A stretch of 52,212 nucleotides of DNA from a virus (Duplodnaviria > Caudoviricetes): positions 1-52,212 of IMG/VR virus record IMGVR_UViG_3300049830_000248, one strand, 5' to 3'. Of the stretch, positions 1 through 15,890 are shown piece after piece. The stretch's first letter is position 1. The number at the start of each line of letters is the position of its first letter. The translations under genes were made by a program, and so were the position numbers. The notes below the pieces were generated by a model. It saw only the letters and a list, made by a program, of their open reading frames with translations, was not told the DNA's origin and searched no databases.

Positions 1-5
1 TGACG

Positions 6-176
6 ATGAATAAAAATCCCGCAGCCGTGGCGCTCGGCAAAATGAAAAGTGCGGCCAAGTCGAAAGCTGCCCGCGAGAACGGCAAGCTCGGCGGTCGCCC
101 GCGCAAACCAAAGCGTGTGGCTCGGAGTGCTAACGCCGCGCTCTGCGAAGTGGCGGACAAGACGCGACCGAATTAA
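6..176 (+). CDS. Small basic AT-hook-like protein (56 aa), last ORF of a cassette cut by the window start
   Basis: ATG at 6 gives MNKNPAAVALGKMKSAAKSKAARENGKLGGRPRKPK...; GRPRK motif; reads through the AAC of the attC at 128 and stops at TAA 174-176 in its loop. Not in the ORF track. Confidence 0.65.
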   Translation: MNKNPAAVALGKMKSAAKSKAARENGKLGGRPRKPKRVARSANAALCEVADKTRPN

Positions 177-220
177 CCGATGCCGTGGCCCGCCACTTTC
201 GCAGCAGCAAGTGGTTAGAG
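128..220 (-). other. attC site A1
   Basis: TGCTAAC(128-134)-5 nt-GCTCTGCGAAGTGGCGG ... CCGCCACTTTCGCAGCAGC-5 nt-GTTAGAG(214-220); two unpaired bases (T, C) in the right arm on the + strand. Confidence 0.85.
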
Positions 221-241
221 GCGAATAATCGTAATACAAAT

Positions 242-574
242 ATGAAAAATGCAATCGAATGGTTCAAAGAAAAAGGCTTTGACGCTAACTGGAATGGAAA
301 AATAAAGCTGAAGGACATCATCGCTCTGCAAAATGACGCTGCGAAATCCGCGCTGATGACGGCGCAAATGGTCGCGTCCGAAGTCATCCAAAAAGAGGCT
401 ACGAAGTATGCCGTCATCGGCGACCCGATACCCGGCCCACCGGCTGAAATGTCACTGTCAGGACTCCAATACAAAGTCACGAGTGCAATCGTGGCGATGG
501 CGGACAAACTGGAATACATACCTGAAGCCTCTAACGTAGAACTGAGCGACCGGCGCGAGAACAATCAACGATGA
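242..574 (+). CDS. Hypothetical cassette protein (110 aa; possible GTG start at 185)
   Basis: ATG after an A/T-rich leader; cassette ends GTTAGAGGC(214-222)/GCCTCTAAC(527-535) are perfect reverse complements. Confidence 0.7.
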   Translation: MKNAIEWFKEKGFDANWNGKIKLKDIIALQNDAAKSALMTAQMVASEVIQKEATKYAVIGDPIPGPPAEMSLSGLQYKVTSAIVAMADKLEYIPEASNVELSDRRENNQR

Positions 575-639
575 CCGCTACTCTACCAGCATCCGAATTG
601 CAGAGGCCCGCGCCGGTTCGCTCCAGTGATTTGTTAGCG
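529..639 (-). other. attC site A2
   Basis: CTCTAAC ... ACTGAGCGACCGGCGCG / CGCGCCGGTTCGCTCCAGT ... GTTAGCG; bulged T and C in the right arm. Confidence 0.85.
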
Positions 640-1380
640 CGTCCGGCCCGAATCGTTGCGCTGTCTGGCGGGAAGGACTCAACGGCGATGGCACTCGGAC
701 TCGCGGAGCGTGAACCAGACGAATACGAATACTGCATCACGCCGACCGGACGTGAACTGCCGGTGATGGTGGAACACTGGAAGCGCCTCGAATGTCTGCT
801 CGGCAAACCGCTCATCAAAGTGCCCGCGCCGACGCTGGTGGAACTCATCATCAAATACAAAACGCTCCCGAATCACCGGATGCGCTACTGCACGCGCCAA
901 GTGAAAATCGAGCCGTTCCAAATCTACGCGGCAGGCAAAGCTCCGGCGGTGTGCTATGTAGGAATCCGCGCCGACGAAGCGGACTCACGCGAAGGAACTG
1001 ACCACACGGGCATCGTCGGCGTGACGCAAGACTGCCCGCTCGTGCGATGGGGCTGGGACATAAACGACGTGAGGAACTACCTCCGCAAGCGCGGTGTGGA
1101 AGTGCCGGAGCGAACAGACTGTGACATGTGCTACCACCAGCAACTCGGCGAATGGTGGCGGCTGTGGCGCGACCACAAAGACCGCTGGCAGGAAATCGAG
1201 GCACTCGAAGCGTGGACAGGGCACACGCTGCGGAGCGAGCAACGCGACACCTGGCCGGCGAGCCTGAAAGAACTCGCCAAGAAATTTGAGGCTGGATACG
1301 TGCCGAAAGGAGCAGCGCAAACAAACCTCCGCCTCGACGTGTCCGAGCGGTCAACAATGTGCGCGTGGTGTGCTCGATGA
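571..1380 (+). CDS. Phosphoadenosine phosphosulfate (PAPS) reductase-family protein (cassette)
   Basis: PP-loop IVALSGGKDSTAM, RYCTRQVKIEP, VGIRADE, PLVRWGW, CDMC cysteine cluster. Confidence 0.85.
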   Translation: MTATLPASELQRPAPVRSSDLLARPARIVALSGGKDSTAMALGLAEREPDEYEYCITPTGRELPVMVEHWKRLECLLGKPLIKVPAPTLVELIIKYKTLPNHRMRYCTRQVKIEPFQIYAAGKAPAVCYVGIRADEADSREGTDHTGIVGVTQDCPLVRWGWDINDVRNYLRKRGVEVPERTDCDMCYHQQLGEWWRLWRDHKDRWQEIEALEAWTGHTLRSEQRDTWPASLKELAKKFEAGYVPKGAAQTNLRLDVSERSTMCAWCAR

Positions 1381-1402
1381 ACACGAGACGCAACATCCGG
1401 CG

Positions 1403-1525
1403 CGCTAACGCAAAGGCCAGCAACGGCGGGGGACAATGAACGATGAACGCAGAACCGATATTGGAATTGGAACAAGGTGACGAACGCACGGCGCACCCGC
1501 CGTTGGCTGCGCCGCTTGGTTCTGC
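1403..1525 (-). other. attC site A3
   Basis: CGCTAAC ... GGCCAGCAACGGCGGG / CCCGCCGTTGGCTGCGCC ... GTTCTGC; two bulges in the right arm. Confidence 0.85.
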
Positions 1526-1970
1526 ATCCCCGCGTGACAAGCACATCATGTCAGTAATGGGAAGCTCGAAAGACATGACGTGGCCGACACCGACGGAATG
1601 GTTCGACTACCTCGACCTCGAATTTGGCTTCACGCTCGATCCGTGCTGCGAACACGCGACGGCGAAATGCGCGAAGCACTACACGCCAGCCGAAGATGGA
1701 CTGGCGCAACCGTGGAAAGATGAACGTGTCTTTATGAATCCGCCGTATGGCCGCGAAATCGGCGCGTGGATGAAGAAGGCATACGAGGAAGCCCGCGACA
1801 ACGGCGCACTGGTGGTGTGCTTCGTGCCTGCTCGCGTGGATACAAACTGGTGGCATAGCTACGCTGCGAAAGCCACAGAAGTCCGCTATCCAAAAGGGCG
1901 CGTGAAAAACCCGGACGGCGTGGCATGGCCGTTCCCAATCGCGGTGATAATCTACCGCCCGCGACTGTGA
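1443..1970 (+). CDS. Phage DNA N6-adenine methyltransferase, Dam-like (cassette)
   Basis: WPTPTEWF...FTLDPCC, catalytic VFMNPPYG, VPARVDTNWW; cassette ends GTTCTGCATC/GATGCAGAAC are perfect complements. Confidence 0.9.
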   Translation: MNAEPILELEQGDERTAHPPLAAPLGSASPRDKHIMSVMGSSKDMTWPTPTEWFDYLDLEFGFTLDPCCEHATAKCAKHYTPAEDGLAQPWKDERVFMNPPYGREIGAWMKKAYEEARDNGALVVCFVPARVDTNWWHSYAAKATEVRYPKGRVKNPDGVAWPFPIAVIIYRPRL

Positions 1971-1971
1971 T

Positions 1972-2069
1972 GCAGAACGCTCGTGCTGACCTACCCCGCA
2001 TTGACGATGTGGCCCGCGAAAGCGGATGTGAGGGGAACAATAGGGGTTAGGTCCGGCACGTTGTTAGCA
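1972..2069 (-). other. attC site A4
   Basis: GCAGAAC ... TGCTGACCTACCCC / GGGGTTAGGTCCGGCA ... GTTAGCA; two extra bases in the right arm. Confidence 0.8.
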
Positions 2070-2083
2070 GGCGAATTTGAGAT

Positions 2084-2236
2084 ATGAAACAAAAACCGAA
2101 AAGCAAAAAGGCCGACTCTTTGAAGTGGGCAATCGGCCAGCTTGAAAAGATGGCGGCGGAAGAAACAGACCCAAAACTGAAAGCTCTCTGGCTGCGAAGT
2201 GCGGCTGCTGGCTACGAACGAAAGGCAAGGCAATGA
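2084..2236 (+). CDS. Small hypothetical protein (50 aa), first ORF of a two-gene cassette
   Basis: MKQKPKSKKADSLKWAIGQLEKMAAEE...; its TGA overlaps the next ATG (ATGA 2233-2236). Confidence 0.6.
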   Translation: MKQKPKSKKADSLKWAIGQLEKMAAEETDPKLKALWLRSAAAGYERKARQ

Positions 2237-2604
2237 CCGAAGAACTGAAATCAAACACTCCGAAAACGGACGCATACGACAAAGACAACTGGCGTGGCAA
2301 CTCCGCTGGCTGGCGCGAGCGATCAATCACCATCGAGGACGCTCTGGACTTCGCACGCAAGCAAGAATACTCGGCGGCGTGCGCCGAAAAGCTCCTGCTC
2401 GAAATCGGCCATGCGATAGCCGAACGGCTCGAAAAAATCCGCATAGACTCCGACAAAGAACCGCACCGCCGAAACGCAGAGTGCGACATCAAAACCGAAG
2501 ATATGCTGGATATGATAACGCGCAGCATCCACACCTATAAACTCACTCAATCCGACGACGTGGCCGAGCCTGCTAACGTGAAGTCCTGCGGTGGCGGGGA
2601 ATAA
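2233..2604 (+). CDS. Hypothetical cassette protein (123 aa)
   Basis: TPKTDA...DFARKQE phage-like motif; cassette ends GTTAGCAGGC/GCCTGCTAAC. Confidence 0.7.
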   Translation: MTEELKSNTPKTDAYDKDNWRGNSAGWRERSITIEDALDFARKQEYSAACAEKLLLEIGHAIAERLEKIRIDSDKEPHRRNAECDIKTEDMLDMITRSIHTYKLTQSDDVAEPANVKSCGGGE

Positions 2605-2691
2605 ATCTATGAGCGCAAAATCACCAGTTGAAATTGAGGCGAGCGGCGAGCGTAAAAAAATCACGCCATCCGCAGCGACGCTTGGTTCGGC
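2571..2691 (-). other. attC site A5
   Basis: TGCTAAC ... GTCCTGCGGTGGCG / CGCCATCCGCAGCGAC ... GTTCGGC; bulged T and C. Confidence 0.85.
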
Positions 2692-2700
2692 AGCTCCCAC
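2574..2700 (+). repeat. 127-bp exact repeat, internal copy (other copy 52086-52212)
   Basis: Direct comparison from TAACGTGAAGTCC to GCAGCTCCCAC. Confidence 0.95.
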
Positions 2701-2941
2701 GTTCTGCGCTGGCTGTGACTGGTGGAAACCGCGTAGAACGGCAGACGGCATGACCGGACTCGTCGGGTGGTGTGATGCCTTCAAGAAAACAACCAATGCG
2801 ACTCACGGTTCGCGCTGCACTGCGTGGACTCGCTGGCAAGAGCCGCCGAACGATGAAGCCAGCGAACCCGGAACTATGACTCACGACAACCCAAAACCCG
2901 AAGCGGCGAACCCAAGGCGTAATCCGGGTTCGCTGCGCTGA
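2609..2941 (+). CDS. Cys-rich hypothetical cassette protein (110 aa)
   Basis: Starts in the attC A5 loop; CAGC...WC...C pattern; ends inside attC A6. Confidence 0.65.
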   Translation: MSAKSPVEIEASGERKKITPSAATLGSAAPTFCAGCDWWKPRRTADGMTGLVGWCDAFKKTTNATHGSRCTAWTRWQEPPNDEASEPGTMTHDNPKPEAANPRRNPGSLR

Positions 2942-2951
2942 CTGGTTAAGC
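2845..2951 (-). other. attC site A6
   Basis: GCCGAAC ... AGCCAGCGAACCCGGA / TCCGGGTTCGCTGCGCT ... GTTAAGC; bulged C in the right arm. Confidence 0.85.
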
Positions 2952-2972
2952 ATCCCGAACAACAACACAAAT

Positions 2973-3155
2973 ATGAAACTGAAAAAAATAATGATACTGG
3001 AACTGACCGAACTCGAAACCGATGCAATCAAAACGCTCATCGGCAGAACGTCCGAGAAGGCGCGACTCGACCTCGGCCTGACTCTCGCTCAATCCAACAC
3101 TGTGTCTGACATCTACGACCACCTTCCGAATCTGGATGATGGCAAGGATGCTTAA
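2973..3155 (+). CDS. Hypothetical protein (60 aa), attI-proximal cassette
   Basis: Cassette ends GTTAAGCATCC(2945-2955)/GGATGCTTAAC(3146-3156), 11 bp perfect. Confidence 0.7.
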   Translation: MKLKKIMILELTELETDAIKTLIGRTSEKARLDLGLTLAQSNTVSDIYDHLPNLDDGKDA

Positions 3156-3182
3156 CAATCATTAACAAACTTCTGTTCGTAT
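3150..3182 (-). other. Putative attI site
   Basis: The last cassette end is followed by a non-hairpin A/T-rich 26 bp with TTAACAA repeated at 3152 and 3162, directly before the intI start. Confidence 0.6.
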
Positions 3183-4151
3183 ATGAGAATTGAAACCGCC
3201 TTGGAAACATTAAGGGATGTGATTCGCAGGAAACATTTCTCTTTGGCTACGGAACGGAGTTATCTCATGTGGGTGTCACGTTATGCGAGATTTGTTTCTG
3301 ACCTTGCCCGCAGGAATTGCCCGCAGGGATTGCCCGCCCAAAAGTTAGAGGCGTTTCTTACACAACTCGCCCGTCAGGACGTTTCAGCCTCAACTCAAAA
3401 TCAGGCGTTCAATGCGCTAATCTTTTTTTACCGCGAAGTCGTCAAGGTCGAGGTTGGAAACGTAAATGCGTTGCGCGCCAAGAAGCCTGTGCAATTGAGA
3501 TTCGCGCCCGAATTTTCAGAGGTAAAAAAACTGCTCGAATCAGTTCAGGACATTGGAGGCTATCCTACCCGCCTGATTGTGAAATTAATTTACGGTTGCG
3601 GCCTGCGCGTTTCCGAGCCGCTGAATCTTCGCGTGAAGGACGTTTTGCTGGAAGATTCCAAGCTGGTGATTTGCGGAGCGAAGGGCGGAAAAGATCGGTT
3701 TATTTCAATCCCCTGCTCGCTGGCTGGAGAACTGAAAACGCAACTGGCTTTTGCAAAATCGGTTCAGGCGCAAGACCGCACCAATTTGGTTCCAGTTGCT
3801 TTGCCTGGATTGCTGGCGAAGAAATACCCGCATTGGCAGTTCTCTCCGAAATGGGCGTTTTTGTTTCCTGCCCGGACGACTTGCCAACATCCGCGCGAAG
3901 GATTTAATGTCCGATGGCGTTGCCACGAGGCGAATGTTCAGCGGGCGGTTCGGGCAGCGGCGCGGCCTTTGGGTCTGGACATCACGCCGCACCACCTACG
4001 CCACGCCTACGCGACCCACTGTTTGAACAGTGGGCACAATCCGCGAGCGATTCAACAGGCGATGGGTCACAGCCAGCTAGAGACAACGATGGGCTACCTC
4101 CATGCCGAAGCCATGAGCGTTAAATCACCTTTGGAATTTCAAACTCACTAA
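3183..4151 (+). CDS. intI: Integron integrase (IntI-type tyrosine recombinase)
   Basis: IRRKHFSLATERSYLMWV, VSASTQNQAFNALIFFY, YGCGLRVSE, KGGKDR, IntI-specific insertion ALPGLLAKKYP...WAFLFP...HEANVQRAV, HHLRHAYATH, MGHSQLETTMGY; catalytic R-K-H-R-H-Y all present. Confidence 0.92.
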   Translation: MRIETALETLRDVIRRKHFSLATERSYLMWVSRYARFVSDLARRNCPQGLPAQKLEAFLTQLARQDVSASTQNQAFNALIFFYREVVKVEVGNVNALRAKKPVQLRFAPEFSEVKKLLESVQDIGGYPTRLIVKLIYGCGLRVSEPLNLRVKDVLLEDSKLVICGAKGGKDRFISIPCSLAGELKTQLAFAKSVQAQDRTNLVPVALPGLLAKKYPHWQFSPKWAFLFPARTTCQHPREGFNVRWRCHEANVQRAVRAAARPLGLDITPHHLRHAYATHCLNSGHNPRAIQQAMGHSQLETTMGYLHAEAMSVKSPLEFQTH

Positions 4152-4155
4152 AACC

Positions 4156-5241
4156 ATGTTCAAAAACGCAAAAATCTTCTCCATCGGCGCGAATCCAGAA
4201 GAATACCACAGCCAGCCAGCCGAGCGCGGTCAATCCAACTATGTGATGTCGTCATCCGCGCTGCGGATGTTCGCGCTCTGTCCGTCGAAGTGGCGGAATG
4301 GATGGGAGCTTCCGCGCTCCGCGTCCCTCGAATACGGGAGCTTGTTTGATACGCTCATGCTGACGCCGGAGCAGTTTGACACGCGTTACGCGTTGATTCC
4401 AGCCACTTACGATTCGGCGGCGATGAAGTGTCCGAAGTGCGGCTCGGTGTCCGAGGCTGCATCCTGCCGCGCCTGCAAGACCGAGCGCGAGCCGACGACG
4501 ATTCAAAAGCCGTGGAACGGTAATTCGGACACCTGCCGGGCGTGGCTGGACGCGCAGAAGGCCACTGGACGCGAGGTAGTGTCCGCTGACGCCCTGGGGG
4601 ACGCGCAGAGCGCGGCAAAGAGGCTTCTGGCCGACGACCAGCTTAAACGGTTCATCGAAGCCTGTGACAAGCAGGTTTGGCTGACTGCTGACTGGCACGA
4701 CGAAAACACCGGCATCATCGTGCCGGTCAAATGCCTTCTGGACTTGGCGGGAAAGGCAGACAGCGCGTTTGCGAAATCCCTTGGTGATCTGAAAACCACG
4801 AAGAACGCCGCTCCTTTGGCGTGGGCGAAGTGGGCGCATTACGCTGGTTACGAGATTCAGGCCGCTTGGAACACCGACATATTTGTAGCCGCATCGCAGC
4901 GCGAGATTACGAACTTTTGCTTTGTTCTGTCCGAAAGCGAATTCCCTTTTGAAACTGGCCGGCGCTTCATGTCACAAGACCTTCTTGAGCCGGGGATGGA
5001 CACGGGCGACATCGCATCGGGGCGGCGGCAATACCTTGGGATGCTCAAAGGGTATTGCAAATGTGTCAAAAACAACTTCTGGCCGGGATTTGACGACACT
5101 GACGAGGCGAGCGCGGACGGTTGGACGCTGGTTTTACCCGAACCTTACGCAGAACAACGCCGGATGTTCGCTCCGAAATTCAATTATGAGACGGGCGACA
5201 CGGAGGAGGCGGAAGAATCCGACCCAGATTTAATCCCTTAA
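4156..5241 (+). CDS. RecE/exonuclease VIII-like PD-(D/E)XK exonuclease with zinc-ribbon insert
   Basis: EEYH...SSSALR, GSLFDTLML, KCLLD, DLKTT, YEIQAA; CPKC...CRAC insert. Confidence 0.8.
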   Translation: MFKNAKIFSIGANPEEYHSQPAERGQSNYVMSSSALRMFALCPSKWRNGWELPRSASLEYGSLFDTLMLTPEQFDTRYALIPATYDSAAMKCPKCGSVSEAASCRACKTEREPTTIQKPWNGNSDTCRAWLDAQKATGREVVSADALGDAQSAAKRLLADDQLKRFIEACDKQVWLTADWHDENTGIIVPVKCLLDLAGKADSAFAKSLGDLKTTKNAAPLAWAKWAHYAGYEIQAAWNTDIFVAASQREITNFCFVLSESEFPFETGRRFMSQDLLEPGMDTGDIASGRRQYLGMLKGYCKCVKNNFWPGFDDTDEASADGWTLVLPEPYAEQRRMFAPKFNYETGDTEEAEESDPDLIP

Positions 5242-5400
5242 TTCCTGACCTGCCAGCCTGACCGTCTCGCGCATGGCCTCAAACCACTCTTTAGGCGTTC
5301 GGACGCGGGAAACGGGCGTTGGCGAGCGGCGCGGAGCCTTCTGACGCGGTTCGGGCTGGTCGTCATCCAGCCACCAGAACCGTTTATTTCCTGATTTCAT
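5230..5400 (-). CDS. Small hypothetical protein (56 aa)
   Basis: ATG at 5400, MKSGNKRFWWLDD...; last gene of a leftward operon. Confidence 0.5.
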   Translation of the reverse strand: MKSGNKRFWWLDDDQPEPRQKAPRRSPTPVSRVRTPKEWFEAMRETVRLAGQELRD

Positions 5401-5411
5401 AATTTTATGGG

Positions 5412-5651
5412 TTAAGGTTTGGGTAATAGGTAGATGGTCTTGCCACACTCGCAGGCCAACGGCTTTCCGAACGCCTGTTGCCAAAGAAGCGTCTGTTGGT
5501 ATGGCATCACCGAAACCTTCTGGCCGCTCCGGTCGTGGCCGGTGTATTTCGCGCACGAACCAGCGCACTCCACGCAGAGCAGCGCGCCGTTGTCGCCGGA
5601 GTAGATGACGCCTGCTTTCAACACTGGCGTCGTATGGTCGAGCGGTCTCAC
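5412..5651 (-). CDS. Zn-binding hypothetical protein (79 aa)
   Basis: CVEC...CECG; the GTG start overlaps the stop of a 31-aa ORF (5743-5648). Confidence 0.55.
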   Translation of the reverse strand: MRPLDHTTPVLKAGVIYSGDNGALLCVECAGSCAKYTGHDRSGQKVSVMPYQQTLLWQQAFGKPLACECGKTIYLLPKP

Positions 5652-5748
5652 GATTGCACCGCCTTTCCTTCGGTAAACATGACGGAATAATTGACCCATC
5701 CAAGCGCGCTTACGCCTTTGTATTGTCGAGTTTCAGTTTTCATTTTTG

Positions 5749-6048
5749 TTAGTCGTTGGAGTGCCGGTCGGCACGTTCAGTTTCTTCGATGCTGCTCGGC
5801 GACGGAGCGGAGATAGCTTCCGCGTTCTCCCTGCCCACAGTTTCCGATGGGCTAGTTCGCTGTTCCGCCGCCGAGAAGATTTTCGGAGTGTGATTTCGGA
5901 CATAGATGCCGAGCGCGTCAGGGTAGTAGCACCCGTCGCGGTCACACTTGTTGATTAGCTCTTTCATCAGGTCGGGCAGCCAGCAGGCCGGAGCTTCTAC
6001 GATCTGCCGCTGTAGTTCTTCGATTGTTATTTTCATATTTATTTTCAT
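5749..6048 (-). CDS. Hypothetical protein in an ectopic gene cassette
   Basis: Bounded by GTTGGAGTG(5755) and CACTCCAAC(6063-6071) plus an attC. Confidence 0.65.
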   Translation of the reverse strand: MKINMKITIEELQRQIVEAPACWLPDLMKELINKCDRDGCYYPDALGIYVRNHTPKIFSAAEQRTSPSETVGRENAEAISAPSPSSIEETERADRHSND

Positions 6049-6064
6049 ATTTATTTTCCGGTCA

Positions 6065-6158
6065 CTCCAACCAATCGCCGAAGCGAAAGTGGCGGGCGAT
6101 GGCCATTGGTTAATCCGAACGTCTCCCGTCCGCCACTTCGCTTGGCTCGGCGTTGATC
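6065..6158 (+). other. Orphan attC site homologous to A1, opposite orientation
   Basis: CTCCAAC ... GCCGAAGCGAAAGTGGCGG / CCGCCACTTCGCTTGGC ... GTTGATC; closely resembles the reverse complement of 128-220. Confidence 0.8.
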
Positions 6159-6430
6159 TTGAGCGTGTCGAGGTTGCGCCAAGCCGTCTTGCCGTTGCGC
6201 TCGTTCTTCACCAGCGCGCGGGCAACCCCATACGCAAGCTTGAAATCCGTAATGGTTACGAGGGTTTCCTCAACCGCGCCAGCATACAGCAGGGCGGTTG
6301 AGCCGATGAGTTTCTGCGATTCGATTGTGGTCATAAGTCGCCCACCGCGAATCTGGTCGTTGATGTGGTTCGCAATCAACTCGGCGTTTGGCCCGATGAT
6401 CTCTATATTGCTTCCAAGTATCGTTTTCAT
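6110..6430 (-). CDS. Hypothetical protein (106 aa)
   Basis: First gene after a leftward promoter; C-terminus encoded by the attC arm. Confidence 0.65.
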   Translation of the reverse strand: MKTILGSNIEIIGPNAELIANHINDQIRGGRLMTTIESQKLIGSTALLYAGAVEETLVTITDFKLAYGVARALVKNERNGKTAWRNLDTLKINAEPSEVADGRRSD

Positions 6431-6478
6431 ATCAATTCCATTGGTTAATTGTTGATTCCAGTTTTGCCTAGCACCGAT

Positions 6479-6507
6479 AAACTACCATTGTGCCGAATAG
6501 GTGTCAA
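6479..6507 (-). promoter_or_regulatory. Sigma70-like leftward promoter
   Basis: TTGACA-17 bp-TAGTTT on the - strand. Confidence 0.6.
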
Positions 6508-6572
6508 CGTCTATTTCATCTTTTCTTTATCCCCTTGACTTTTCCAGCCGCTACGCCGATTTTCCCGCTGAT

Positions 6573-6965
6573 ATGCCGCTATTTACCGTTGAAAACGCCG
6601 CCGAACTTGGACGCAAAGGAGCTATTCGCCGCAAGGAGCTAATCGAGCAGCGGAAGGCCGAAGCCAAGCAAGCCGAATTTGAACGCGCCACACCGGAGCC
6701 AGAAGCGGCGATTGAGCGGACTAAACGGCAACTGTCGAAGGTGGATGACATGATAGATGCCGCACTGGAGGAGGATGACGCCGACCTGTTTTTACGCCTC
6801 TCTGCCGCCAAAGAGCGCCTCTGGAAGCTGGTTTCCCCGACCGCTGGCGTCCTGAAACAGCCTCGTGGTCGTCAAGATCGGCTCCGGCCTGCAATCGCGC
6901 CGATGTCCGAGCAGCAGCCAGCGACACCACAAGCGGAAACTTCGATTTCTGCCAACGCCTCTTGA
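6573..6965 (+). CDS. Hypothetical helical protein, possible terminase small subunit
   Basis: MPLFTVENAAELGRKG then a coiled coil, followed by a long non-coding G-rich region; the TerS call is inference only. Confidence 0.45.
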   Translation: MPLFTVENAAELGRKGAIRRKELIEQRKAEAKQAEFERATPEPEAAIERTKRQLSKVDDMIDAALEEDDADLFLRLSAAKERLWKLVSPTAGVLKQPRGRQDRLRPAIAPMSEQQPATPQAETSISANAS

Positions 6966-7519
6966 TTTGCCAATGTTTTTGTGCGTGTTTTGAATTGCCA
7001 AAAGCGCCTCACGAAACCAGCATGAACATTGATTGAATAATTATAGACACACAATAGTCCTTGTGTTCACTTGTGTTTTCTTGTGGTGTCCAAGACCAGG
7101 AACTTTTGATGGAGGCAAGGAATCTCTTTGGCTGGCCGAGGGGGTGGGACGGGTGACGGGGGGAGGGGGAATCACAGCGACGATGGCGCGGCGTGACTCC
7201 CCCTTTTCACACGAGGAATAAAAATGGAAGGGATTGTAGAAAGGAGGATGAATCTTTTGTGGACATAGTTCGCCCCTAAATGGAAGGGAAGCCGCTGTTG
7301 TTCGGAGAGCTTCCGCAGCGGGTGTCACCGGCCCTTTGCTCACAAGACGCTGGTGCGCCTTTGGGGAGGGACGAATGTTAATGCGGAGAGTTCGGGTGCG
7401 GGGCGATTTCGGGATGTGAAAAGCCGGTGCAAAGACTGGCAGATCGTTCCTATTGTTGAGCGGGCAACAACACCACGATGAGGCGGGTATCCGAGCCTGG
7501 CGGATGCAACCGAGGACGC

Positions 7520-7556
7520 AAAAAACCCGTGCCATCTTTGAGGGATGACACGGGTT
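7520..7556 (-). terminator. Rho-independent terminator-like hairpin
   Basis: AACCCGTGCCATC / GATGACACGGGTT stem with an A6 tract (U-tract on the - strand). Confidence 0.55.
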
Positions 7557-7894
7557 ACAATGTTCCGCCAGTTCTGCCAACGCCCTGAAAAGGACGCCGG
7601 CATATTCTTAAAGTTGGTGGCTGGTGGAACCGACATTGTGATGAACTAATCGCATAGGCAGGAGAAAAAGTAAAACAGTTCTTGCACGCAGGTTGCGTGG
7701 TGTGGTAGAAATGGGTGTCAGCGCGAGTTGACCCGGTTGGAAGCCGGAAAAAAAGAGTGCAGGCTAATGAAAACAACCACCAACGAAAATTCTGTGCGTC
7801 ATCTGGCGCAATCGGTAAACCTTCACGGTCGCAAGGCCGGGCTGCGCTCGCCGCTTCCAACGTCGGGTGACGCACAGAGGATTTGGAGGCAGGT

Positions 7895-8170
7895 ATGAGC
7901 GAAAAATCAGGCACGGATAAAATGTCGGCTCACTGGCCGCCGTCGTATCGCGGAAGAATCCCCGTCAAGGTGCGTATGGCCTGCGTGAGTCGAAAACACA
8001 TTCATTGGAAAATCAAGCAGTCCATTTGGGCATCGCCGTGTGCTTCGTGTGGTTCTGGCACTAATGTTCAGATAGACCACATAATTCCAGTTTCAAAGGG
8101 TGGAACAAGCACGCAAGAAAATCTTCAACCTTTGTGCGGAATTTGTAATGGAAGAAAGGGGAACAAGTGA
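7895..8170 (+). CDS. HNH endonuclease
   Basis: CASC...IDHIIPVSKGG...NLQPLCGICNGRKG. Confidence 0.88.
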   Translation: MSEKSGTDKMSAHWPPSYRGRIPVKVRMACVSRKHIHWKIKQSIWASPCASCGSGTNVQIDHIIPVSKGGTSTQENLQPLCGICNGRKGNK

Positions 8171-8844
8171 ATAAACCACCAGCCTTTCAGTTCTACGCCG
8201 ACGACTTCCTTGCCGGAACCGTCACCATGTCGAACGAAGAACGTGGTCTGTTCATCACCCTGCTTTGTCGCCAATGGTCACAAGGGTTTGTTACAAAATC
8301 GGAGATTGAAAGGATTAGCAAAGGTATGGCTGTGCCATCGATTACCCATGTCACAGCCAAGTTCAAGCCATCAGGAAAAGACCAGTTTCAGAACGAAAGA
8401 TTGGAGTTGGAGCGTAAAAAACAGGAAGAATACCGAAAAAACCGCTCAAATTCAGGAAAAATAGGTGCTTTATCAAGATGGCACAGCCATAGCACAGCCA
8501 TAGCACAGCCTATGGCAAACGATGGCTCTCCGTCTCCGTCTCCGTCTCCGTCTTCAGAAGAAGAGAGAGAGAGTGGCGCACACACTCACTTTCCTGAAGC
8601 TCAAATCCCGTCATGGTCTGAATTCTGGACATACTGCCAGTCTCAAGCCTGCCTTCTCCCAGCGGAATGGTATGCCCGCGACAAGTTCGAGGCAGCGGAG
8701 TCTGACCATTGGAAGGGAAAAGGCAACTGGCGGGCGTATGCCCGGCGGTGCAAAGGCTGGTGGGAATCAGACGGCAGACCAATGCAGCCCAAGAAAAAGG
8801 TTGGAAAAATAGATGCCAGCGCACCAGTGGGAGGGCGTTTCTAA
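8167..8844 (+). CDS. YdaU/DUF1376-like replication initiator
   Basis: KPPAFQFYADDFL...EERGLFITLLC..W, NERLELER, SPSPSPS linker; directly upstream of the helicase. Confidence 0.75.
   Translation: MNKPPAFQFYADDFLAGTVTMSNEERGLFITLLCRQWSQGFVTKSEIERISKGMAVPSITHVTAKFKPSGKDQFQNERLELERKKQEEYRKNRSNSGKIGALSRWHSHSTAIAQPMANDGSPSPSPSPSSEEERESGAHTHFPEAQIPSWSEFWTYCQSQACLLPAEWYARDKFEAAESDHWKGKGNWRAYARRCKGWWESDGRPMQPKKKVGKIDASAPVGGRF
8481..8513 (+). repeat. Three 11-bp direct repeats, probable replication iterons
   Basis: GCACAGCCATA x2 plus GCACAGCCTAT inside the initiator linker, as in lambda O-type origins. Confidence 0.55.
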
Positions 8845-10115
8845 TGGACAAACTGCCGCCATACGCGCCGGAGGCTGAGAAGTGCATCATCGGGTCATGC
8901 CTGATTGATCCGAAGATTCGCCTTCCAGAATGTCAAATGGTCATTACCAACTCGGAATTCTTCTACCAATTCCAGTGTCAAATTGTTTGGGATACCATCA
9001 ACGCAATGAGTCTGGAAACAGTGAACTTTGTCAGCGTCATCCAAAAGCTGCGGGACGGGACGCCCGAACAGAAATCGGTCACGCTGGAATTTATGTCGGA
9101 ATGTCAGGACATGGTGACGAGCGCAGCCAACCTTCCGACGTGGCTTGAGGAGGTCGAAAAAAAGTTCATCGCGCGCAAGGTGATTTCGGTCTGCACCCGT
9201 GCGGTGGCGTCCATGTATGAGGGTGGGGACGTGATGGCGATGCTGGACGGCATTGAATCATCCGTGCTGGGAATCAGGCCGGCGGAACGGAATACGAAAG
9301 ACATCAAATCACTCATGCGCGAAGCAACCGGACTGATTGAACAGCGTTCGCAGAATTGGGACTTGGTGCTTGGACATGAAACAGGGTTTTCCGATCTTGA
9401 CCGAAAGACTGACGGCATCCACGGCGGCGAGTTCATCGTCATCGGCGCACCTACGAGTTGCGGCAAGACCGCGCTCGCGCTTAACATCATCGTTCACAAC
9501 GCGCTTAATGGCGTTCCGTCCGGTATCTTGTCGGCTGAAATGCTGCCGGTGAAGCTGGCTCTGCGCTCGCTCTGCGCTGAATCGCGCGTTAACTTCAAAC
9601 GCATCGCCGAAACGGACGTTTCAAAGATGATTGCCAACATCGGGCGCATTGCAAATTCACCCATTCACATGGACACCATCAACGGCTTCACCATCGGCCA
9701 GGTGCGGGCGCTCGCGCGCCGGATGAAGCAGTTGCACAGAATCAAGATTCTGGCGATTGAGAACATCCAGCTATTGCAGGGCAAAGGCGACACGCGCGAG
9801 CAGCAGATTTCTGACATCAGCCGGGGCATGAAAGGCATCGCGCTTGAATTGGACATTGCCGTGCTTGGATTATCTCAATTGAACGACGATAACCGCCTGC
9901 GCGAGTCACGCGCCATTGGGCATGATGCGGATTCGGTTTGGATCATCGAGAACGACGGCCCGTGGCAACCAGCCATCCAGCCGGTAAAGCTGAATGTGGA
10001 GAAATGCCGGGACGGGGAGACAGGAATAGTGCCGCTGATGTTTTTTAAGGAACATACACGGTTTGAACAACCGTCGAAGATTGCAGATGACGACGTGCCA
10101 AACGGAGAAGATTGA
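8844..10115 (+). CDS. dnaB: DnaB-like replicative helicase (423 aa)
   Basis: LPPYAPEAEKCIIGS, TGFSDLDRKTDG, GAPTSCGKT, SAEM, LSQLN, LRES...DAD, KCRDGETG; TAATG coupling. Confidence 0.9.
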   Translation: MDKLPPYAPEAEKCIIGSCLIDPKIRLPECQMVITNSEFFYQFQCQIVWDTINAMSLETVNFVSVIQKLRDGTPEQKSVTLEFMSECQDMVTSAANLPTWLEEVEKKFIARKVISVCTRAVASMYEGGDVMAMLDGIESSVLGIRPAERNTKDIKSLMREATGLIEQRSQNWDLVLGHETGFSDLDRKTDGIHGGEFIVIGAPTSCGKTALALNIIVHNALNGVPSGILSAEMLPVKLALRSLCAESRVNFKRIAETDVSKMIANIGRIANSPIHMDTINGFTIGQVRALARRMKQLHRIKILAIENIQLLQGKGDTREQQISDISRGMKGIALELDIAVLGLSQLNDDNRLRESRAIGHDADSVWIIENDGPWQPAIQPVKLNVEKCRDGETGIVPLMFFKEHTRFEQPSKIADDDVPNGED

Positions 10116-13133: not shown

Positions 13134-15890
13134 TCAATGCTTCAAAAGTCCCGCTTGAATGGCATCGTCCCATTCTTTCACTTCCTTGTCAAAATAATCC
13201 TCATCATCTGCATTGTTGGATTTCACGTCGCGTCCGATGCGTTCAATCTTGAATCCCATGCGCCTTGCGCCTTCGATTGCGATGGCAAACCAGTCGTAAA
13301 GGTCGGGGCTTTTCTTTACCCGCTCTTTCATGTCATCCTTCGATTCGACTTCAACCTTGTTGCCGGCAACAACTTTGAACAACCGCAACTGACCCTCCTG
13401 CGCGACATTGGCCGGCAGGTTTCGCACTTGGTTTGACTCAATCGCCTCACGGGTAGAGAACCACATTTCCGTGACGAACTTTGAATAATGCTCGTCACAC
13501 CGTTTCAGCCGTTTTTCACCCTCCTTTTCGTCAACAAACAAGTCGAACCGGACTGGCCGCGTTGTTGTCCTCGCACCGGAGTCAACCGGCTGCGGGCAGC
13601 TGGCTCCAAAAACCTTTGCAAAAGAGTTTCCAAGAGTCCCGCGCCCAAACGAGTCGTAAAAAATGTTTTCAGGCTTCAAGTCCAAGCGTTCGGACTGCTG
13701 CTTGATGAATTCTGCAATCTGATCCTCTGCATCCAGGCTGGAATTAAGCCGGATTGGAATTATCTCTGGTGTCCCAACGGAAAAAATCAAATTGCCGTCC
13801 TTGTCCTCGCCAAACTCGCACTCGCCACCAACGCAACGGTCGCCGCCACCGTATGCTGGATCAAGCGCATAAATTTTTGTTCGTGGAGTCCCTTTCCAAA
13901 TCGCGGATTTGAAAGCGCCATGCCGTTCACACAGTCCGATGGTGATGACGCGGTTTGAAACCATGCCGCGCGACGGCTTGCCGATGCCCTGCTGATAAAC
14001 CTGCCACGAGTCGGCCCCATAGGTGTCAATCAGCTTTTGAACGTAGCCGGAATTTGCCAAAAACGGGAAACTATCCTTCGGCTCGTCGTTGTTCGGCGTG
14101 TCGCGCCCGTCGTAGGCCACGCAAAAGGCGTTGAGCCAGCGCGAACGCCAAACTTGCGTCTTGCCGTTGTCAATGAAAGTGTCCCAACCTCCTGGCGGTT
14201 CGCTGGCGACACAAAGCGGGTCGGAAATGTCGGTCGGATTTCCGGCCATTACCCCTTTGAACCGCGAGTTTGCCATCCAGTTTGTGTAACCGTCCAACAG
14301 CGAAGGCTGCATCACCGCGCAGTTGTGGACTAAAAAACCATTTACGGAGTAGCTTGGATGTCCGGCAACCGCGAGATTATAGACCGAAGTTCTGCCTTCA
14401 CAATCTGCGGCGTCAGAATGACTCGCTTGTTCGCATATCTCAACACTGTCCACCCAAGCGAAGCTAGAAAATTCGTTTTCTTCGCGTCTTGCTCCTGCCG
14501 CGCAATCGTGTTGTGTGATGCTCCGTCTAATTCCACCGCCAGTTTCTTTTTCGGAAATGCAACATCCACTTTGTAGTGCGTCGGGTAGCCGCTCCCCGCT
14601 GGCATTTTCGTTTTGACTGGAAAATTGTTCTTGGCTCGCGGAGAGAATGTTTTGAGGAGAATCAATTCTGCCTTCGTCGGCCCTGTTCCATTTCCGCCGC
14701 GAATAGTAGGCTTGTGACCCGCCGCCTTCAACCGCCTGCTTATATTGCGATTGATTTCCAACTTCTGTTTGTCCGTCAGTGAAGCGCGGAAATCCTGAAA
14801 CCCTTGCTCCATCTTCTCCCGCATATCCGCATAACGCTCCGGCTGCTCCGCAAACAGCTTCTTGCGAGCTTTCTGAATCTTTTGGGAACGCTCCGGCGTG
14901 TAAAGTTTCTTGCGGTAGTCCGGTTGCGCTGCGAACCACTTCCCTTTGCAGGACAGCCCGCAGAACATCCGATTGGGCGGGATTAAAACCCCACAGCGGC
15001 GACATTTCTTTTCCTGACAAGATTTGATTTGCTTCATGCGCCGTTATCATAACACAACCCTGGTCAAGCTCAAACGCTTTTTTCCATCCGAATTGTGTCA
15101 GGACAGGATGCTCTGGTGTGCAGACGATTTCTTTTCCATTGCTGATTTTTATTCTGACAAGATTTCTGGCGGCGCGCTTCATAGTTGCAATTACCCTTGA
15201 CGCACCAACGGCAGAAAAAACCAAGTCGCCAGTTCGGATGGATTCAATCGGCCTTTTTCCGTGTGGCGTATCAACCAAAGTCCCCGCAGGGAAACACTCG
15301 TCTCCGTAGTGTTTAAGGATGCCATCATTTTTCCCCGGCGAACTTGGAGCCTTCACGCCCTGAAACTTCGACATCCCGACAAATCGCCCGCCGCTGACGC
15401 AGGGGACGCACACGATTCCTCGGTCTATCTGCCGCGCAAATTCACCATCCTCATCAATGTCATCGCTGACAATCGCCATCTTGGATTCAAGAATGTGGCC
15501 GGGCAACCACGGAAAGCGGGAGCGGCCACGGTTGAACAGCCATTTGATGCCTCGCCCCCAGATGCGGAGTTCGAGCGACCGGATGTCAGTCGAAGAAATC
15601 AAAGCCAGAGAAGTTTCGGGAAAACACCAGAAATCAATCAGCGCATGGCATGACATCAAATAAGTCTTTGAAGCGTTCGCGCAGCCAAGAATCACCGTCA
15701 CCTGATTTTCTACGATACCTGCCATGCCCAACTCAAACCAGCGGTGTTGCTTGTCCTCCGGCCAAAGCAGGGAGTGTGCTTTCAGGTAGTGCTGGACTGT
15801 GGACGGCTTGCCATAGTCGCGCCGAATCATGGCGAATTCAATTTCCAGCGGGTCAGCACCATCCGGCCAGTTCAGATTATATTTCTGCAC
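13134..15890 (-). CDS. terL: Terminase large subunit with intein (918 aa precursor, about 593 aa spliced)
   Basis: Walker A-like GCANASKT, Walker B HYGDE, MAGNP, nuclease ALDPAYGGGDR, C-terminal KSPDLYD. Confidence 0.88.
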   Translation of the reverse strand: MQKYNLNWPDGADPLEIEFAMIRRDYGKPSTVQHYLKAHSLLWPEDKQHRWFELGMAGIVENQVTVILGCANASKTYLMSCHALIDFWCFPETSLALISSTDIRSLELRIWGRGIKWLFNRGRSRFPWLPGHILESKMAIVSDDIDEDGEFARQIDRGIVCVPCVSGGRFVGMSKFQGVKAPSSPGKNDGILKHYGDECFPAGTLVDTPHGKRPIESIRTGDLVFSAVGASRVIATMKRAARNLVRIKISNGKEIVCTPEHPVLTQFGWKKAFELDQGCVMITAHEANQILSGKEMSPLWGFNPAQSDVLRAVLQREVVRSATGLPQETLHAGAFPKDSESSQEAVCGAAGALCGYAGEDGARVSGFPRFTDGQTEVGNQSQYKQAVEGGGSQAYYSRRKWNRADEGRIDSPQNILSASQEQFSSQNENASGERLPDALQSGCCISEKETGGGIRRSITQHDCAAGARREENEFSSFAWVDSVEICEQASHSDAADCEGRTSVYNLAVAGHPSYSVNGFLVHNCAVMQPSLLDGYTNWMANSRFKGVMAGNPTDISDPLCVASEPPGGWDTFIDNGKTQVWRSRWLNAFCVAYDGRDTPNNDEPKDSFPFLANSGYVQKLIDTYGADSWQVYQQGIGKPSRGMVSNRVITIGLCERHGAFKSAIWKGTPRTKIYALDPAYGGGDRCVGGECEFGEDKDGNLIFSVGTPEIIPIRLNSSLDAEDQIAEFIKQQSERLDLKPENIFYDSFGRGTLGNSFAKVFGASCPQPVDSGARTTTRPVRFDLFVDEKEGEKRLKRCDEHYSKFVTEMWFSTREAIESNQVRNLPANVAQEGQLRLFKVVAGNKVEVESKDDMKERVKKSPDLYDWFAIAIEGARRMGFKIERIGRDVKSNNADDEDYFDKEVKEWDDAIQAGLLKH
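14322..15296 (-). mobile_element. Intein (325 aa) inserted immediately after the Walker B DE
   Basis: N-terminal CFPAGTLVDT...IESIRTGDLV, block B CTPEHP, C-terminal VYNLAVAGHPSYSVNGFLVHN followed by Cys +1. Confidence 0.93.
14342..15037 (-). CDS. DUF559/Vsr-like endonuclease nested in the +1 frame of the intein
   Basis: CRRCG...FCGLSC zinc finger, PTKAE, YKVDVAFPKKKLAVELDGASH...QDAKKTNFLASLGWTVLR. Confidence 0.85.
   Translation of the reverse strand: MKQIKSCQEKKCRRCGVLIPPNRMFCGLSCKGKWFAAQPDYRKKLYTPERSQKIQKARKKLFAEQPERYADMREKMEQGFQDFRASLTDKQKLEINRNISRRLKAAGHKPTIRGGNGTGPTKAELILLKTFSPRAKNNFPVKTKMPAGSGYPTHYKVDVAFPKKKLAVELDGASHNTIARQEQDAKKTNFLASLGWTVLRYANKRVILTPQIVKAELRSIISRLPDIQATP

Follow-up and report, generated by a model that had tools for sequence, protein, structure and literature searches.

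The window analysed here, a whole IMG/VR virus record of 52,212 bp (CheckV 96%), likely carries a complete and probably active phage integron, which follows the classical recombination grammar with its genes on the other strand. Integrons are gene-capture systems that are so far known mainly from bacteria. The array in the window comprises about 13 one-gene cassettes, whose genes lie on the same strand as the recombined strand and are directed at the integrase gene (intI), rather than lying on the top strand and pointing away from intI, as do the promoterless, Pc-expressed cassette genes of a classical integron. Computation established the parts of this system and their orientation, alternative cassette junctions, conservation within a family and a contrast to bacterial integrons. 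The label 'phage' is based on how IMG/VR and CheckV class the record, on the replication genes and on a weak TerL and tail match, these being among the weakly recognisable virion genes of the window. Judging from MAG bins only, the host probably belongs to the Verrucomicrobiota.

Integrase and attI-like site

The intI gene (3183-4151, + strand) is full-length and encodes 322 aa. Its product matched the 'integron integrase' family TIGR02249 over profile positions 2-313 of 315 with 256.2 bits, a near miss 9 bits below the NCBIfam curated cut-off of 265, while the next-best family, XerA, reached 136 bits. The alignment to VchIntIA (PDB 2a3v; E 8e-44) was unbroken over 8-309, including residues 205-250, whereas a XerC-like chain aligned in two pieces only and skipped 189-250. 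Because the IntI-specific insertion (205-250) is aligned here and is skipped by Xer-type chains, the enzyme is of the IntI type and not of the Xer type. In a tree of 120 IntI sequences, it falls inside a clade of 40 (SH-aLRT 100), which, besides the window, comprises 28 viral contigs and 11 contigs from MAGs, nine of the latter being labelled Verrucomicrobiota. The intact IntI-type gene of the original prediction is therefore borne out by the family match, the VchIntIA alignment and the phylogeny that had been proposed as a check. The enzyme is predicted to be catalytically active.

An attI-like site (3150-3182, + strand), consisting of the crossover box GCTTAAC followed by AATCATTA, adjoins the 5' end of intI, with only 26 nt between the box and the ATG. 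Of 44 related viral loci, 29 have a conserved AAC-N3-5-ATT motif within the 90 nt that precede intI. The box is also used as an insertion point in contig data: public run X1 shows the A1 cassette end joined to it (26 letters on the short side), and a junction of A5 to the box is probable in run X2 (11 letters only). As the array ends in an intact intI 26 nt from the last cassette, it does not qualify as a CALIN, i.e., an attC cluster lacking an integrase.

attC sites on the + strand

To locate attC sites, we ran our own hairpin scanner (score at least 20) over the whole window and obtained 11 matches, ten in the array regions and one outside (6065-6158). The extra bases lie solely in the right arm in all ten array sites (left arm 0), in line with the original claim that unpaired bases are always in the right arm on the + strand; in the site outside the array, they lie in the left arm of the + strand. 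A covariance model trained on 16 attC sites, all taken from viral contigs other than the window, was then searched against both strands with filters off. It returned 11 + strand sites at E <= 7e-4 within 128-2951 and 50367-52197 as well as the lone inverted site at 6065-6158 (- strand), which was the best match of the window (61.5 bits); beyond these, there was none at E < 0.01 in the whole window on either strand. Opposite-strand scores at the same sites were far lower (e.g., 15.9 versus 59.1 bits). A search with Rfam at the gathering threshold gave 0 matches. Two further sites show boxes only (49953-50026 and 50609-50615), so that the 'about a dozen' hairpins predicted earlier correspond to 11 attC sites, one of which is a contig-end duplicate, plus these two.

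The sites are imperfect hairpins with an AAC/GTT R box, an unpaired spacer, extrahelical bases in one arm and a variable loop. Their order of elements (R box, 5-nt spacer, 3 bp, extra base at position 16, about 5 bp, extra T, stem) is the same as in the bacterial attC sites picked up by the same scanner, and agrees with the G16/T20-24 numbering given in Nivina et al. 2016 (PMC5027507). According to the same paper, the bottom strand has its extrahelical bases in the arm that faces the recombining 5'-AAC-3', with the crossover between A and C; the rule that the original prediction had taken as established is thus in print.

Cassettes of the array

All the following features are on the + strand unless stated otherwise. 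The first cassette, Bz (49953-50372), carries a zinc-ribbon ORF (50037-50372; weak zinc-ribbon matches; codon model + by 22.9). In Bz, the left box (ATTTAAC) shares bases with the stop codon of erf, and the right box lies at 50020-50026; both boxes are present, with no hairpin detectable by the covariance model, and 50020-50031 is complementary to 50362-50373 (12 nt). Cassette B1 (50373-50614; attC 50367-50470, E 7.6e-10, 2 extra bases in the right arm) has an ORF (50403-50645) whose tail extends beyond the cassette end and whose strand is ambiguous in the codon model (-1.8). Segment B2 (50615-50846) contains a zinc-ribbon-like ORF (50674-50898; + by 10.4), with no hairpin after the boundary box 50609-50615 and no covariance-model site; it may be a cassette whose attC has decayed. 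Next come B3 (50847-51285; attC 50841-50929, 52.4 bits on + versus 28.6 on -, 2 extra bases in the right arm), with an ORF at 50998-51285 (+ by 18.0), and B4 (51286-51692; attC 51280-51380, 3.7e-8, 3 extra bases in the right arm), with a DUF4326 gene (51301-51711; Pfam DUF4326, 1.1e-18). Cassette B5 (51693-52088) shows no convincing single ORF, is ambiguous in the codon model (-2.2) and may be decayed; its attC (51687-51786, 1.2e-5) is 85-97% like that of B4 and belongs to repeat families D5 and D6 of a repeat analysis of the window. The contig end (52086-52212) is an exact 127-nt copy of 2574-2700, includes the duplicate attC found by the covariance model (52089-52197) and records A5 immediately behind B5.

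At the other end of the record, A0 (1-133) is cut by the contig start and contains a small basic ORF (6-176; + by 4.9). It is followed by A1 (134-534; attC 128-220, 5.2e-16), with an ORF at 242-574 (+ by 17.5), and A2 (535-1408; attC 529-639, model match 529-637 at 3.3e-11, fold computed), with a PAPS-reductase-like gene (571-1380; Pfam PAPS_reduct) whose start codon sits in the attC hairpin loop. A3 (1409-1977; attC 1403-1525, model match 1410-1518 at 7e-6) encodes a Dam-type N6-adenine methylase (1443-1970; Pfam Dam, 2.4e-24, also TIGR01712), and A4 (1978-2576; attC 1972-2069, 6.6e-4) contains ORFs 2084-2236 and 2233-2604 (+ by 34.1). In A5 (2577-2850; attC 2571-2691, model match 2577-2685 at 6e-5), the tail of the ORF (2609-2941) enters the next attC, which belongs to A6 (2851-3155; attC 2845-2951, 4.7e-14; ORF 2973-3155, + by 13.7), the cassette adjoining attI. 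Reverse-complementary cassette ends, as described in the original prediction, were seen in A6 (2945-2955 with 3146-3156, 11 nt), between 51374-51385 and 51682-51693 (12 nt) and, perfectly matched, in B1 (50464-50475 with 50604-50615, 12 nt). The two parts of the array (1-2573 and 49953-52212) may be different array variants of one population, the contig being unphased.

A single cassette lies outside the array (5749-6158, - strand), in which the attC (6158-6065) heads an ORF (6048-5749) on the same strand (codon model - by 20.5). Its location recalls the insertion of cassettes at non-att genomic sites (attG) described by Loot et al. (bioRxiv 2022.09.11.507474), with which it shares matched ends and the lack of a far-side partner attC; unlike those insertions, it lies in a phage genome and its gene polarity is reversed.

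Alternative junctions in public contigs

Evidence for cassette movement came from the Logan contigs, not raw reads, of four public runs (X1-X4; three studies), among which X1 may be the source sample. The contigs showed the cassettes in differing orders. One joint in X1 (531->3153) connects the end of A1 to attI, and one in X4 (3152->131) connects the end of A6 to the start of A1; both share just TAAC at the join, and the former, with 26 letters on its shorter side, was flagged as weak by the tool. The loose ends listed lie at 130, 135, 2574, 2863 and 3154, the last being backed by 11 letters only. At 135, a cassette different from A1 stands behind A0 in X1, X2 and X3. The loose end at 2574 in X1 and X2 is the same B5-to-A5 junction as that at the contig end, and A5 thus occurs behind three upstream neighbours, namely A4 (contig), B5 (X1 and X2) and an unknown cassette (X3). 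Breaks in the X1 contigs are confined to the left boxes of attC sites and to attI. Overall, the alternative junctions fall at the AAC of left boxes or, in one case (2863), 12 nt past the left box, and no joint or listed loose end was found at any right-box GTT. In these data, the cassettes move as units, and crossover takes place inside the AAC of the bottom strand, between its A and its C. Divergent intI alleles were also present, appearing as loose ends at 3381 and 3416, and strain mixtures are present.

The side of the unpaired bases and the positions of the junctions agree, so these two separate kinds of evidence support the + strand as the bottom strand of attC, i.e., the recombined strand, as originally predicted. 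It follows that each attC heads its gene.

Gene direction in the window and its relatives

In the window, Pfam matches were on the + strand, and the codon model assigned 11 of 13 segments to +, with two ambiguous (B1 and B5) and none clearly on -. The same layout was found in related viral contigs. The codon model called 63 of 81 inter-attC segments in 22 loci '+', with 14 unclear and 4 '-' (58, 11 and 4 of 73 when two duplicate loci were left out). Among array ORFs, 26 Pfam families matched within 141 + strand ORFs and 0 within 141 - strand ORFs. We further counted the side of the extra bases in 31 non-duplicate viral loci (IntI at least 43% identical; 8 kb on each side of intI): upstream of intI, they were in the right arm in 95 sites, in the left arm in 0 and symmetric in 4, and downstream the numbers were 5, 5 and 6, respectively. 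In a looser training run, two loci were called 'away' (L023) and 'away1' (L010), calls that are contradicted by the ORF map and by the codon segment calls, respectively.

Bacterial integrons analysed with the same pipeline had the attC-intI orientation of the window and genes on the opposite strand, i.e., the canonical arrangement. The codon model called 13 of their 23 segments '-', 2 '+' and 8 unclear, and the phage-derived covariance model placed all 34 upstream sites (in seven of the eight bacterial loci searched) on the intI-sense strand. The claim that every cassette ORF is antisense to the canonical layout thus agrees with both the Pfam and the codon-model results in the window and with the opposite result in these controls.

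The cassettes of the 28 viral contigs in the same IntI clade carry DNA methylases, Lar and Mom; the relatives' cargo includes C5, N6/N4 and Dam methylases, Lar, Mom, HNH and a dNMP kinase. In the window, Pfam recognised Dam, PAPS_reduct and DUF4326, with weak zinc-ribbon matches, so that the phage-type cargo proposed earlier was recovered. The erf-array-intI-exonuclease synteny, which was searched for in the relatives as suggested, was not conserved. The layout of the window also occurs in other viral IntI lineages (e.g., L050).

Discussion

The system shares with classical integrons (class 1 IntI1; Vibrio cholerae, VchIntIA) an IntI with the family-specific insertion, an attI next to the intI 5' end, a crossover at AA|C, attC hairpins with an R box, an unpaired spacer, extrahelical bases opposite AAC and a variable loop, and an intI encoded on the attC bottom strand. 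It differs from them in that its genes lie on the bottom strand facing intI, each attC stands before its gene, the attC arms and loops are coding and the replicon is a phage. [quoted passage not shown] 2016 (PMC5027507).

That integrons and attC clusters occur in phages is already known (Qi et al. 2023, PMC9892861). The complete integrons of that study are either fragments of host chromosomes or class 1 integrons carried by temperate phages, and its virulent phages are without IntI; integron parts on phage genomes and DNA methyltransferase cargo are common to those phages and the window. The words 'reverse', 'upstream' and 'opposite' are absent from its main text. In the literature, we found no description of reversed gene polarity or of this phage clade. 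In a GenBank phage set, nine records matched and the nearest IntI was less than 40% identical to that of the window.

A different origin, which we consider unlikely, would be that the phage picked up the array together with intI as part of a host chromosomal integron, which is not adapted to the phage. The IntI clade includes MAG contigs, and captured integrons in prophages have been published (Vibrio anguillarum, Qi et al. 2023, PMC9892861). One locus of the clade (L064), on a 714-kb MAG contig, is likely a Verrucomicrobiota chromosomal integron; its IntI is 56% identical to that of the window, its attC-intI orientation is the same, and its attC sites are of the same type, their scores with the phage-derived model (up to 60.8 bits) equalling those of phage sites. 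However, its gene strand is the opposite, canonical one, with tiling - strand ORFs (Pfam matches in 2 of 10) and an attC trailing each gene. The polarity of the window is opposite to that of L064 and the other bacterial controls and recurs in the 28 viral clade contigs and in other viral IntI lineages; the cargo is of phage type, the attC sites sit within closely packed ORFs of the phage, and 26 nt separate attI from intI. Moreover, bacterial housekeeping genes do not flank the array, unlike the published integron of Vibrio phage p16, in which 3 of 3 sites are of the window type and most annotated genes are on the other strand.

It is very improbable that the genes and attC sites are canonical, with the + strand as the top strand, and that only intI is turned. 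In such a Treponema-type layout, intI comes before the array, and the genes lie on the attC top strand. Two integron types are distinguished in PMC13323075, and the co-directional intI and cassette genes of the window do match the inverted type. Exactly this type occurs in the GenBank phage Virus Rctr41k (KX853513.1; integrase annotated xerD), whose attC sites lie downstream of the integrase and have their extra bases in the left arm, with genes on the + strand. In contrast, the window array precedes the intI 5' end, its gene strand is the bottom strand, on which intI also lies, and the extra bases are in the right arm. Furthermore, the strand-aware model, built from sites matching the bacterial bottom-strand orientation, prefers +, and the junctions lie at or just past left boxes, with none at a right box among the listed ends.

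There is also scarcely any likelihood that the hairpins are regulatory or repeat elements (e.g., translation-coupling structures or REP-like repeats), the variation a product of homologous recombination between related phages or of assembly chimeras, and the integrase a Xer-like or integration enzyme: the hairpins do enclose start codons and could affect translation, and strain mixtures do exist, but the junctions recur in different studies and share only 4 letters, too short for homologous recombination or k=31 mis-joins, the sites are built in the same way as bacterial attC, the IntI insertion is present in the enzyme, and the other 46 kb are without attC sites save one complete cassette, lone and inverted.

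Taken as a phage integron with reversed gene polarity, the system may work as follows. The intI gene lies at the downstream end of the array, inside a long co-directional early operon that begins before erf and continues into an exonuclease gene. Each cassette opens with its own attC hairpin, in whose loop and right arm the gene often has its ribosome-entry region, its start codon and its first few codons, and ends at xxxxAA, the C being supplied by the next cassette. The + strand, which is sense for both the cassette genes and intI, is predicted to fold in single-stranded form into the canonical bottom-strand attC. IntI would then cut the left box between A and C, cassettes would be excised by attC x attC recombination, and reinsertion would take place at the attI box 26 nt upstream of the intI start codon. 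The 26 nt between attI and the ATG leave no room for Pc or Pint in the window, and a promoter search gave no call above chance. Since the genes are on the other strand, a promoter beside attI cannot drive the cassettes, whose transcription would come by read-through from a phage promoter lying upstream and would reach intI last. The cargo consists of phage accessory and counter-restriction genes, and this integron may serve its phages in counter-defence.

Integron integrase of the phage genome

The original prediction held that the window carries an intact IntI-type gene, and both the profile match and the alignment to PDB chains bore this out. The ORF at 3183-4151 (+) scored 256.2 bits against the NCBIfam family TIGR02249 ('integron integrase') over profile positions 2-313 of 315, which is 9 bits below the curated cut-off of this family; the runner-up family, XerA, reached 136 bits. 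This protein also gave an unbroken alignment to the integron integrase of Vibrio cholerae (PDB 2a3v; residues 8-309, E 8e-44), which covers the IntI-specific segment at residues 205-250 that is absent from Xer-type chains, while the XerC-like chain 4a8e aligned in two separate pieces (52-188 and 251-314). Motifs surrounding the catalytic residues (Arg, Lys, His-x-x-Arg, His and Tyr) were visibly conserved in the 2a3v alignment.

The window record (52,212 bp) is labelled 'linear' and has a CheckV completeness of 96%. Its terminal 127 bases (52086-52212) are an exact copy of 2574-2700, and because 127 is a frequent assembler word length, we take the contig end to be a graph junction. PHROG and Pfam profiles were mostly blank on the large ORFs, including the 2321-aa ORF at 26095-33060 (+), which had zero matches in either. 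The matches found were a DnaB-type helicase (PHROG 19, E 3e-65), an Erf-family protein (49086-49958), a DUF3799/exonuclease VIII-like protein (4156-5241), a weakly matching major-tail protein candidate, and a 918-aa ORF at 13134-15890 (-) with a weak terminase-large-subunit match and an intein (Intein_splicing and Hint domains). As most virion proteins had no match, the phage label rests on the record classification, these matches and the gene layout. Two tandem repeats were also seen, one at 44393-44546 (four copies, 36-nt period, within an ORF) and the other at 32950-33042, where a T-rich unit (21-36 nt) occurs three times at the end of the 2321-aa ORF.

attC sites and their strand

Folding with DNA parameters gave long imperfect hairpins at 10 places, and the 3' arm of each carried single-base bulges. 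We then scored sites with our own scanner, which takes xxxxAAC and GTTxxxx boxes separated by 55-150 nt, aligns the arms locally and requires a score of at least 20. It returned 11 sites in 52 kb: ten within 5.4 kb of array, with the extra bases in the right arm only in 10/10, just as had been predicted for the + strand, and an eleventh (6065-6158) with extra bases in the left arm. Furthermore, an Infernal model trained on 16 attC sites of other viral contigs and none from the window was run on both strands with filters off. This independent model recovered 11 + strand sites (E from 5e-16 to 7e-4), in line with the dozen or so attC hairpins first proposed, as well as 6065-6158 on the - strand (E 9e-17); opposite-strand echoes were much weaker, and no further attC site appeared at E < 0.01 on either strand of the window. 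An earlier hairpin scan requiring 6/7 R-box pairs and a strong fold had missed every array site, because an R box in the array combines sequence of two cassettes, and was replaced by the arm-alignment scanner. A MAFFT alignment of the window's own attC sites mis-aligned the arms and was left out of model building, and an Rfam gathering search of the window gave 0 matches, a result with no bearing on attC identity.

The plan of the attC sites does not vary. A 7-nt box is followed by a 5-nt spacer, by 3 bp and by an extra base at position 16 (C in 9/10); after about 5 bp more comes an extra T, and the site closes with 5-13 bp and a 20-70 nt loop. This plan also holds for bacterial attC sites detected with the same scanner, and the extrahelical bases are named G16 and T20/T23/T24 by Nivina et al. 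2016 (PMC5027507). Two places in the array look different. At 49953-50026 the boxes are present with no detectable hairpin, and the first box of the array overlaps the stop codon of erf; at 50609-50846 a proper box (GCCGAAC) closes cassette B1 with no hairpin after it, and the next zinc-ribbon-like ORF (50674-50898) is without its own attC.

Cassette genes face the integrase

PAPS_reduct, Dam and DUF4326 profiles matched + strand ORFs of the array. A codon model trained on 15 long window genes (leave-one-out strand accuracy, 108/113 chunks of 240 nt) called + for 11 of the 13 array segments, with two ambiguous (B1, -1.8; B5, -2.2) and none clearly -. Thus, the Pfam matches and the codon model agree with the proposal that the ORFs are antisense to the canonical layout. 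Start codons frequently lie inside the hairpin loop (e.g. 571, 2609 and 50403), and the tail of the preceding ORF extends into the next left arm. An open-frame strand test, which is weak in GC-rich DNA, gave 36 '+', 8 '-', 32 both open and 32 neither among 108 segments and was superseded by the codon models and Pfam. Promoter and terminator scans gave counts near the shuffled expectation.

Cassette B5 (51693-52088), which may be decayed or frameshifted, offers no single convincing ORF: one of 16 codons lies at 51807, and a GTG ORF of 64 aa is in a different frame. Outside the array, a lone cassette at 5749-6158 (-) consists of an attC and a 99-aa ORF between two - strand genes, with matching ends and no second hairpin. 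Its codon score favours the - strand (-20.5), on which its attC also lies, so that the attC-then-gene order is kept. It resembles a cassette inserted at a non-att site.

Cassette junctions point to the + strand as the probable recombined strand

According to Nivina et al. 2016 (PMC5027507), recombination takes place between the A and C of 5'-AAC-3' in the bottom-strand R' box, and the extrahelical bases of this strand sit in the arm facing that AAC. On the + strand of the window, the extra bases lie opposite the left-box AAC. Junctions were collected from Logan contigs of four public runs (X1-X4) from three studies, X1 possibly being the source sample, by alignment to 1-6500; uncovered parts carry no claim, and the small-share runs X5-X7 were left out. 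Joint 531->3153 was found in X1 (with just 26 letters on one side and a depth of 69.8 next to about 175, contig depths not being taken as copy numbers), and joint 3152->131 in X4 on a 440-nt contig with a shorter side of 158 letters; this A6-to-A1 joint may represent an excised circle. Only TAAC is common at each join, and an overlap of four letters is too short for homologous recombination or word-31 mis-assembly, which are thus disfavoured as the source of these junctions.

Loose ends of contigs were also located. The end at 2574 led to the B5 end in two runs (X1, X2) and to a different cassette in X3, and that at 135 led to a different cassette after A0 in X1, X2 and X3, which starts with nearly the same letters as the 49953-50026 site. 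Others lay at 130 (X2), at 3154 (X2; the A5 end joined to attI, 11 letters only) and at 2863 (X1 and X4), the last of which falls 12 nt beyond the left box of A6 and is read as shared attC sequence. Contigs of X1 broke in the array only at 127/135, 535, 2574/2603, 2852/2862 and 3153/3182, and none of the joints and loose ends listed for X1-X4 was a GTT-box junction. A cassette therefore runs from the left-box C through the hairpin and gene up to the next xxxxAA, and each attC heads its gene, as proposed. Together with the extra bases opposite the left-box AAC, these junction positions indicate that the + strand is the cut strand, i.e. the bottom strand, as originally suggested. In an all-vs-all blastn of the arrays, common ORF segments stopped at the boxes (e.g. 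loci L010 and L018, 72% over 532 bp), the crossover box not being distinguishable in this comparison. Within intI, loose ends flank a conserved 36-nt stretch (3381-3416) in all four runs; divergent intI alleles from related phages co-occur in the same samples.

A viral family with the same polarity

An IntI-derived pattern search yielded 55 viral loci with IntI 35-76% identical to that of the window. In the 31 non-duplicate loci whose IntI is at least 43% identical, 95 right-arm, 0 left-arm and 4 symmetric sites lay within 8 kb upstream of intI, against 5, 5 and 6, respectively, within 8 kb downstream. Locus-trained codon models of 81 inter-attC segments in 22 viral loci called 63 '+', 14 unclear and 4 '-' (58, 11 and 4 of 73 without the duplicates L050 and L029). 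Looser training had labelled L023 'away' and L010 'away1'; both are taken as training errors, since the ORFs of L023 tile the + strand and L010 was locus-trained '+' twice. Pfam searches of 141 + strand ORFs from viral arrays matched 26 families, and those of 141 - strand ORFs from the same arrays matched 0.

In a quick IntI tree (120 sequences, LG+G4, SH-aLRT, midpoint root, no outgroup), the window IntI fell into a clade of 40 (support 100) comprising the window, 28 other viral contigs and 11 MAG contigs, 9 of which are labelled Verrucomicrobiota. Other viral IntI lineages lie elsewhere in the tree, and they too (e.g. L050) have co-directional genes. An AAC-N3-5-ATT attI motif, often AACAAGGATT or AACAGTGATT, occurs 31-71 nt before the intI start in 29/44 loci. 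The erf/exonuclease synteny around intI, which was suggested as a search handle, is not conserved in relatives; a DnaB-type helicase gene follows intI in L006, L013 and L020.

As for the cargo, tblastn of the window cassette ORFs against the 55 viral loci found relatives only for the PAPS-reductase-like, Dam, DUF4326 and A0 ORFs, and therefore loci hardly share cassette content; short high-identity matches were attC sites. The attC of cassette B4 (51280-51380) is about 85-96% identical (translated level) to L048:3462-3578, although the L048 IntI is only 37% identical. Distant phage integrons seem to share attC sites but not cassette genes. The + strand families include C5 methylase (3 members), N6_N4 methylase (3), Lar (2), Mom, Dam, DUF5131 and HNH. 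Phage-type cargo was found both in the window (Dam, PAPS_reduct, DUF4326) and in related arrays (methylases, Lar, Mom).

Comparison with bacterial and other phage integrons

Promoter-facing cassettes are described as never observed by Nivina et al. 2016 (PMC5027507). In 29 bacterial loci with IntI 35-41% identical, 43 right-arm, 6 left-arm and 15 symmetric sites were found upstream of intI, and the codon model called 13 '-', 8 unclear and 2 '+' of 23 segments, the strand opposite to that of the phage genes. Of eight bacterial loci searched with the phage-derived model, seven gave sites, 34 in all; 34/34 lay on the intI-sense strand upstream of intI. Based on these controls, the attC-intI geometry of the window is canonical, and only the genes are turned. 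The same contrast appeared in L064, a 714-kb MAG contig (likely a Verrucomicrobiota chromosomal integron) whose IntI lies inside the phage clade: its 15 phage-model matches (maximum 60.8 bits) fit the model equally well as phage sites, but its ORFs tile the - strand (2/10 with Pfam matches), whereas phage arrays use the + strand. The published integron of Vibrio phage p16 also differs, with 3 right-arm sites and most annotated array genes on the opposite strand. At 4680-10101 of Virus Rctr41k (L138, KX853513.1), an IntI-like gene annotated xerD precedes five attC-like sites together with methyltransferase genes; the locus is an unannotated inverted-integrase integron. The phage-derived model had no match at E <= 0.01 on L139 and L138, and the Vibrio and Rctr41k sites come from the scanner only.

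Discussion

Integrons are the textbook system of bacterial gene capture, in which a promoter lies beside attI and promoterless genes point away from the integrase; this logic is the stated reason for the strict strand selectivity of the enzyme. The window carries a real, complete and probably active phage integron with canonical recombination geometry and mirror-image gene polarity. Among 10,705 phage genomes, Qi et al. 2023 (PMC9892861) reported three complete integrons, which are host fragments or class 1 elements, as well as one In0 and 17 attC clusters; their main text contains no discussion of gene polarity, and the supplementary tables may hold orientations. Only 9 of 50,697 GenBank phage records matched the window IntI, all at <40% identity, and Virus Rctr41k is among these nine. 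We found no account of reversed cassette polarity or of this phage IntI clade in a literature search lying mostly outside subscription journals and supplements.

A question raised from these findings is whether phages keep a second, mirror-image cassette pool, using the host IntI/attI/attC grammar with genes on the recombining strand, a reading to which we give an even chance. With every gene on the recombining strand, cassette expression would require a replicon whose transcription runs towards intI. If so, host and phage cassettes would be functionally separate yet recombinationally compatible, and the phage counter-defence set could be reshuffled in each infection, because intI would be co-transcribed with the early operon. 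Folding and sense strand would also coincide, and this may help hairpins to extrude in phage replication.

Overall, a whole family of phage integrons retains the recombination chemistry with the genes reversed, indicating that expression logic is separable from recombination logic. While the intI of classical integrons is under SOS control, this would be a natural system with intI expressed alongside the cassettes. An attC that carries the gene start bears on the open question of cassette origin, and arrays of this kind may be mis-annotated by tools that expect genes on the top strand of attC. Host cassettes frequently carry defence genes (Darracq et al., preprint), and the phage arrays may offer a testable route for shuffling of anti-restriction genes, as a counterpart to the defence cassettes of bacterial chromosomal integrons.
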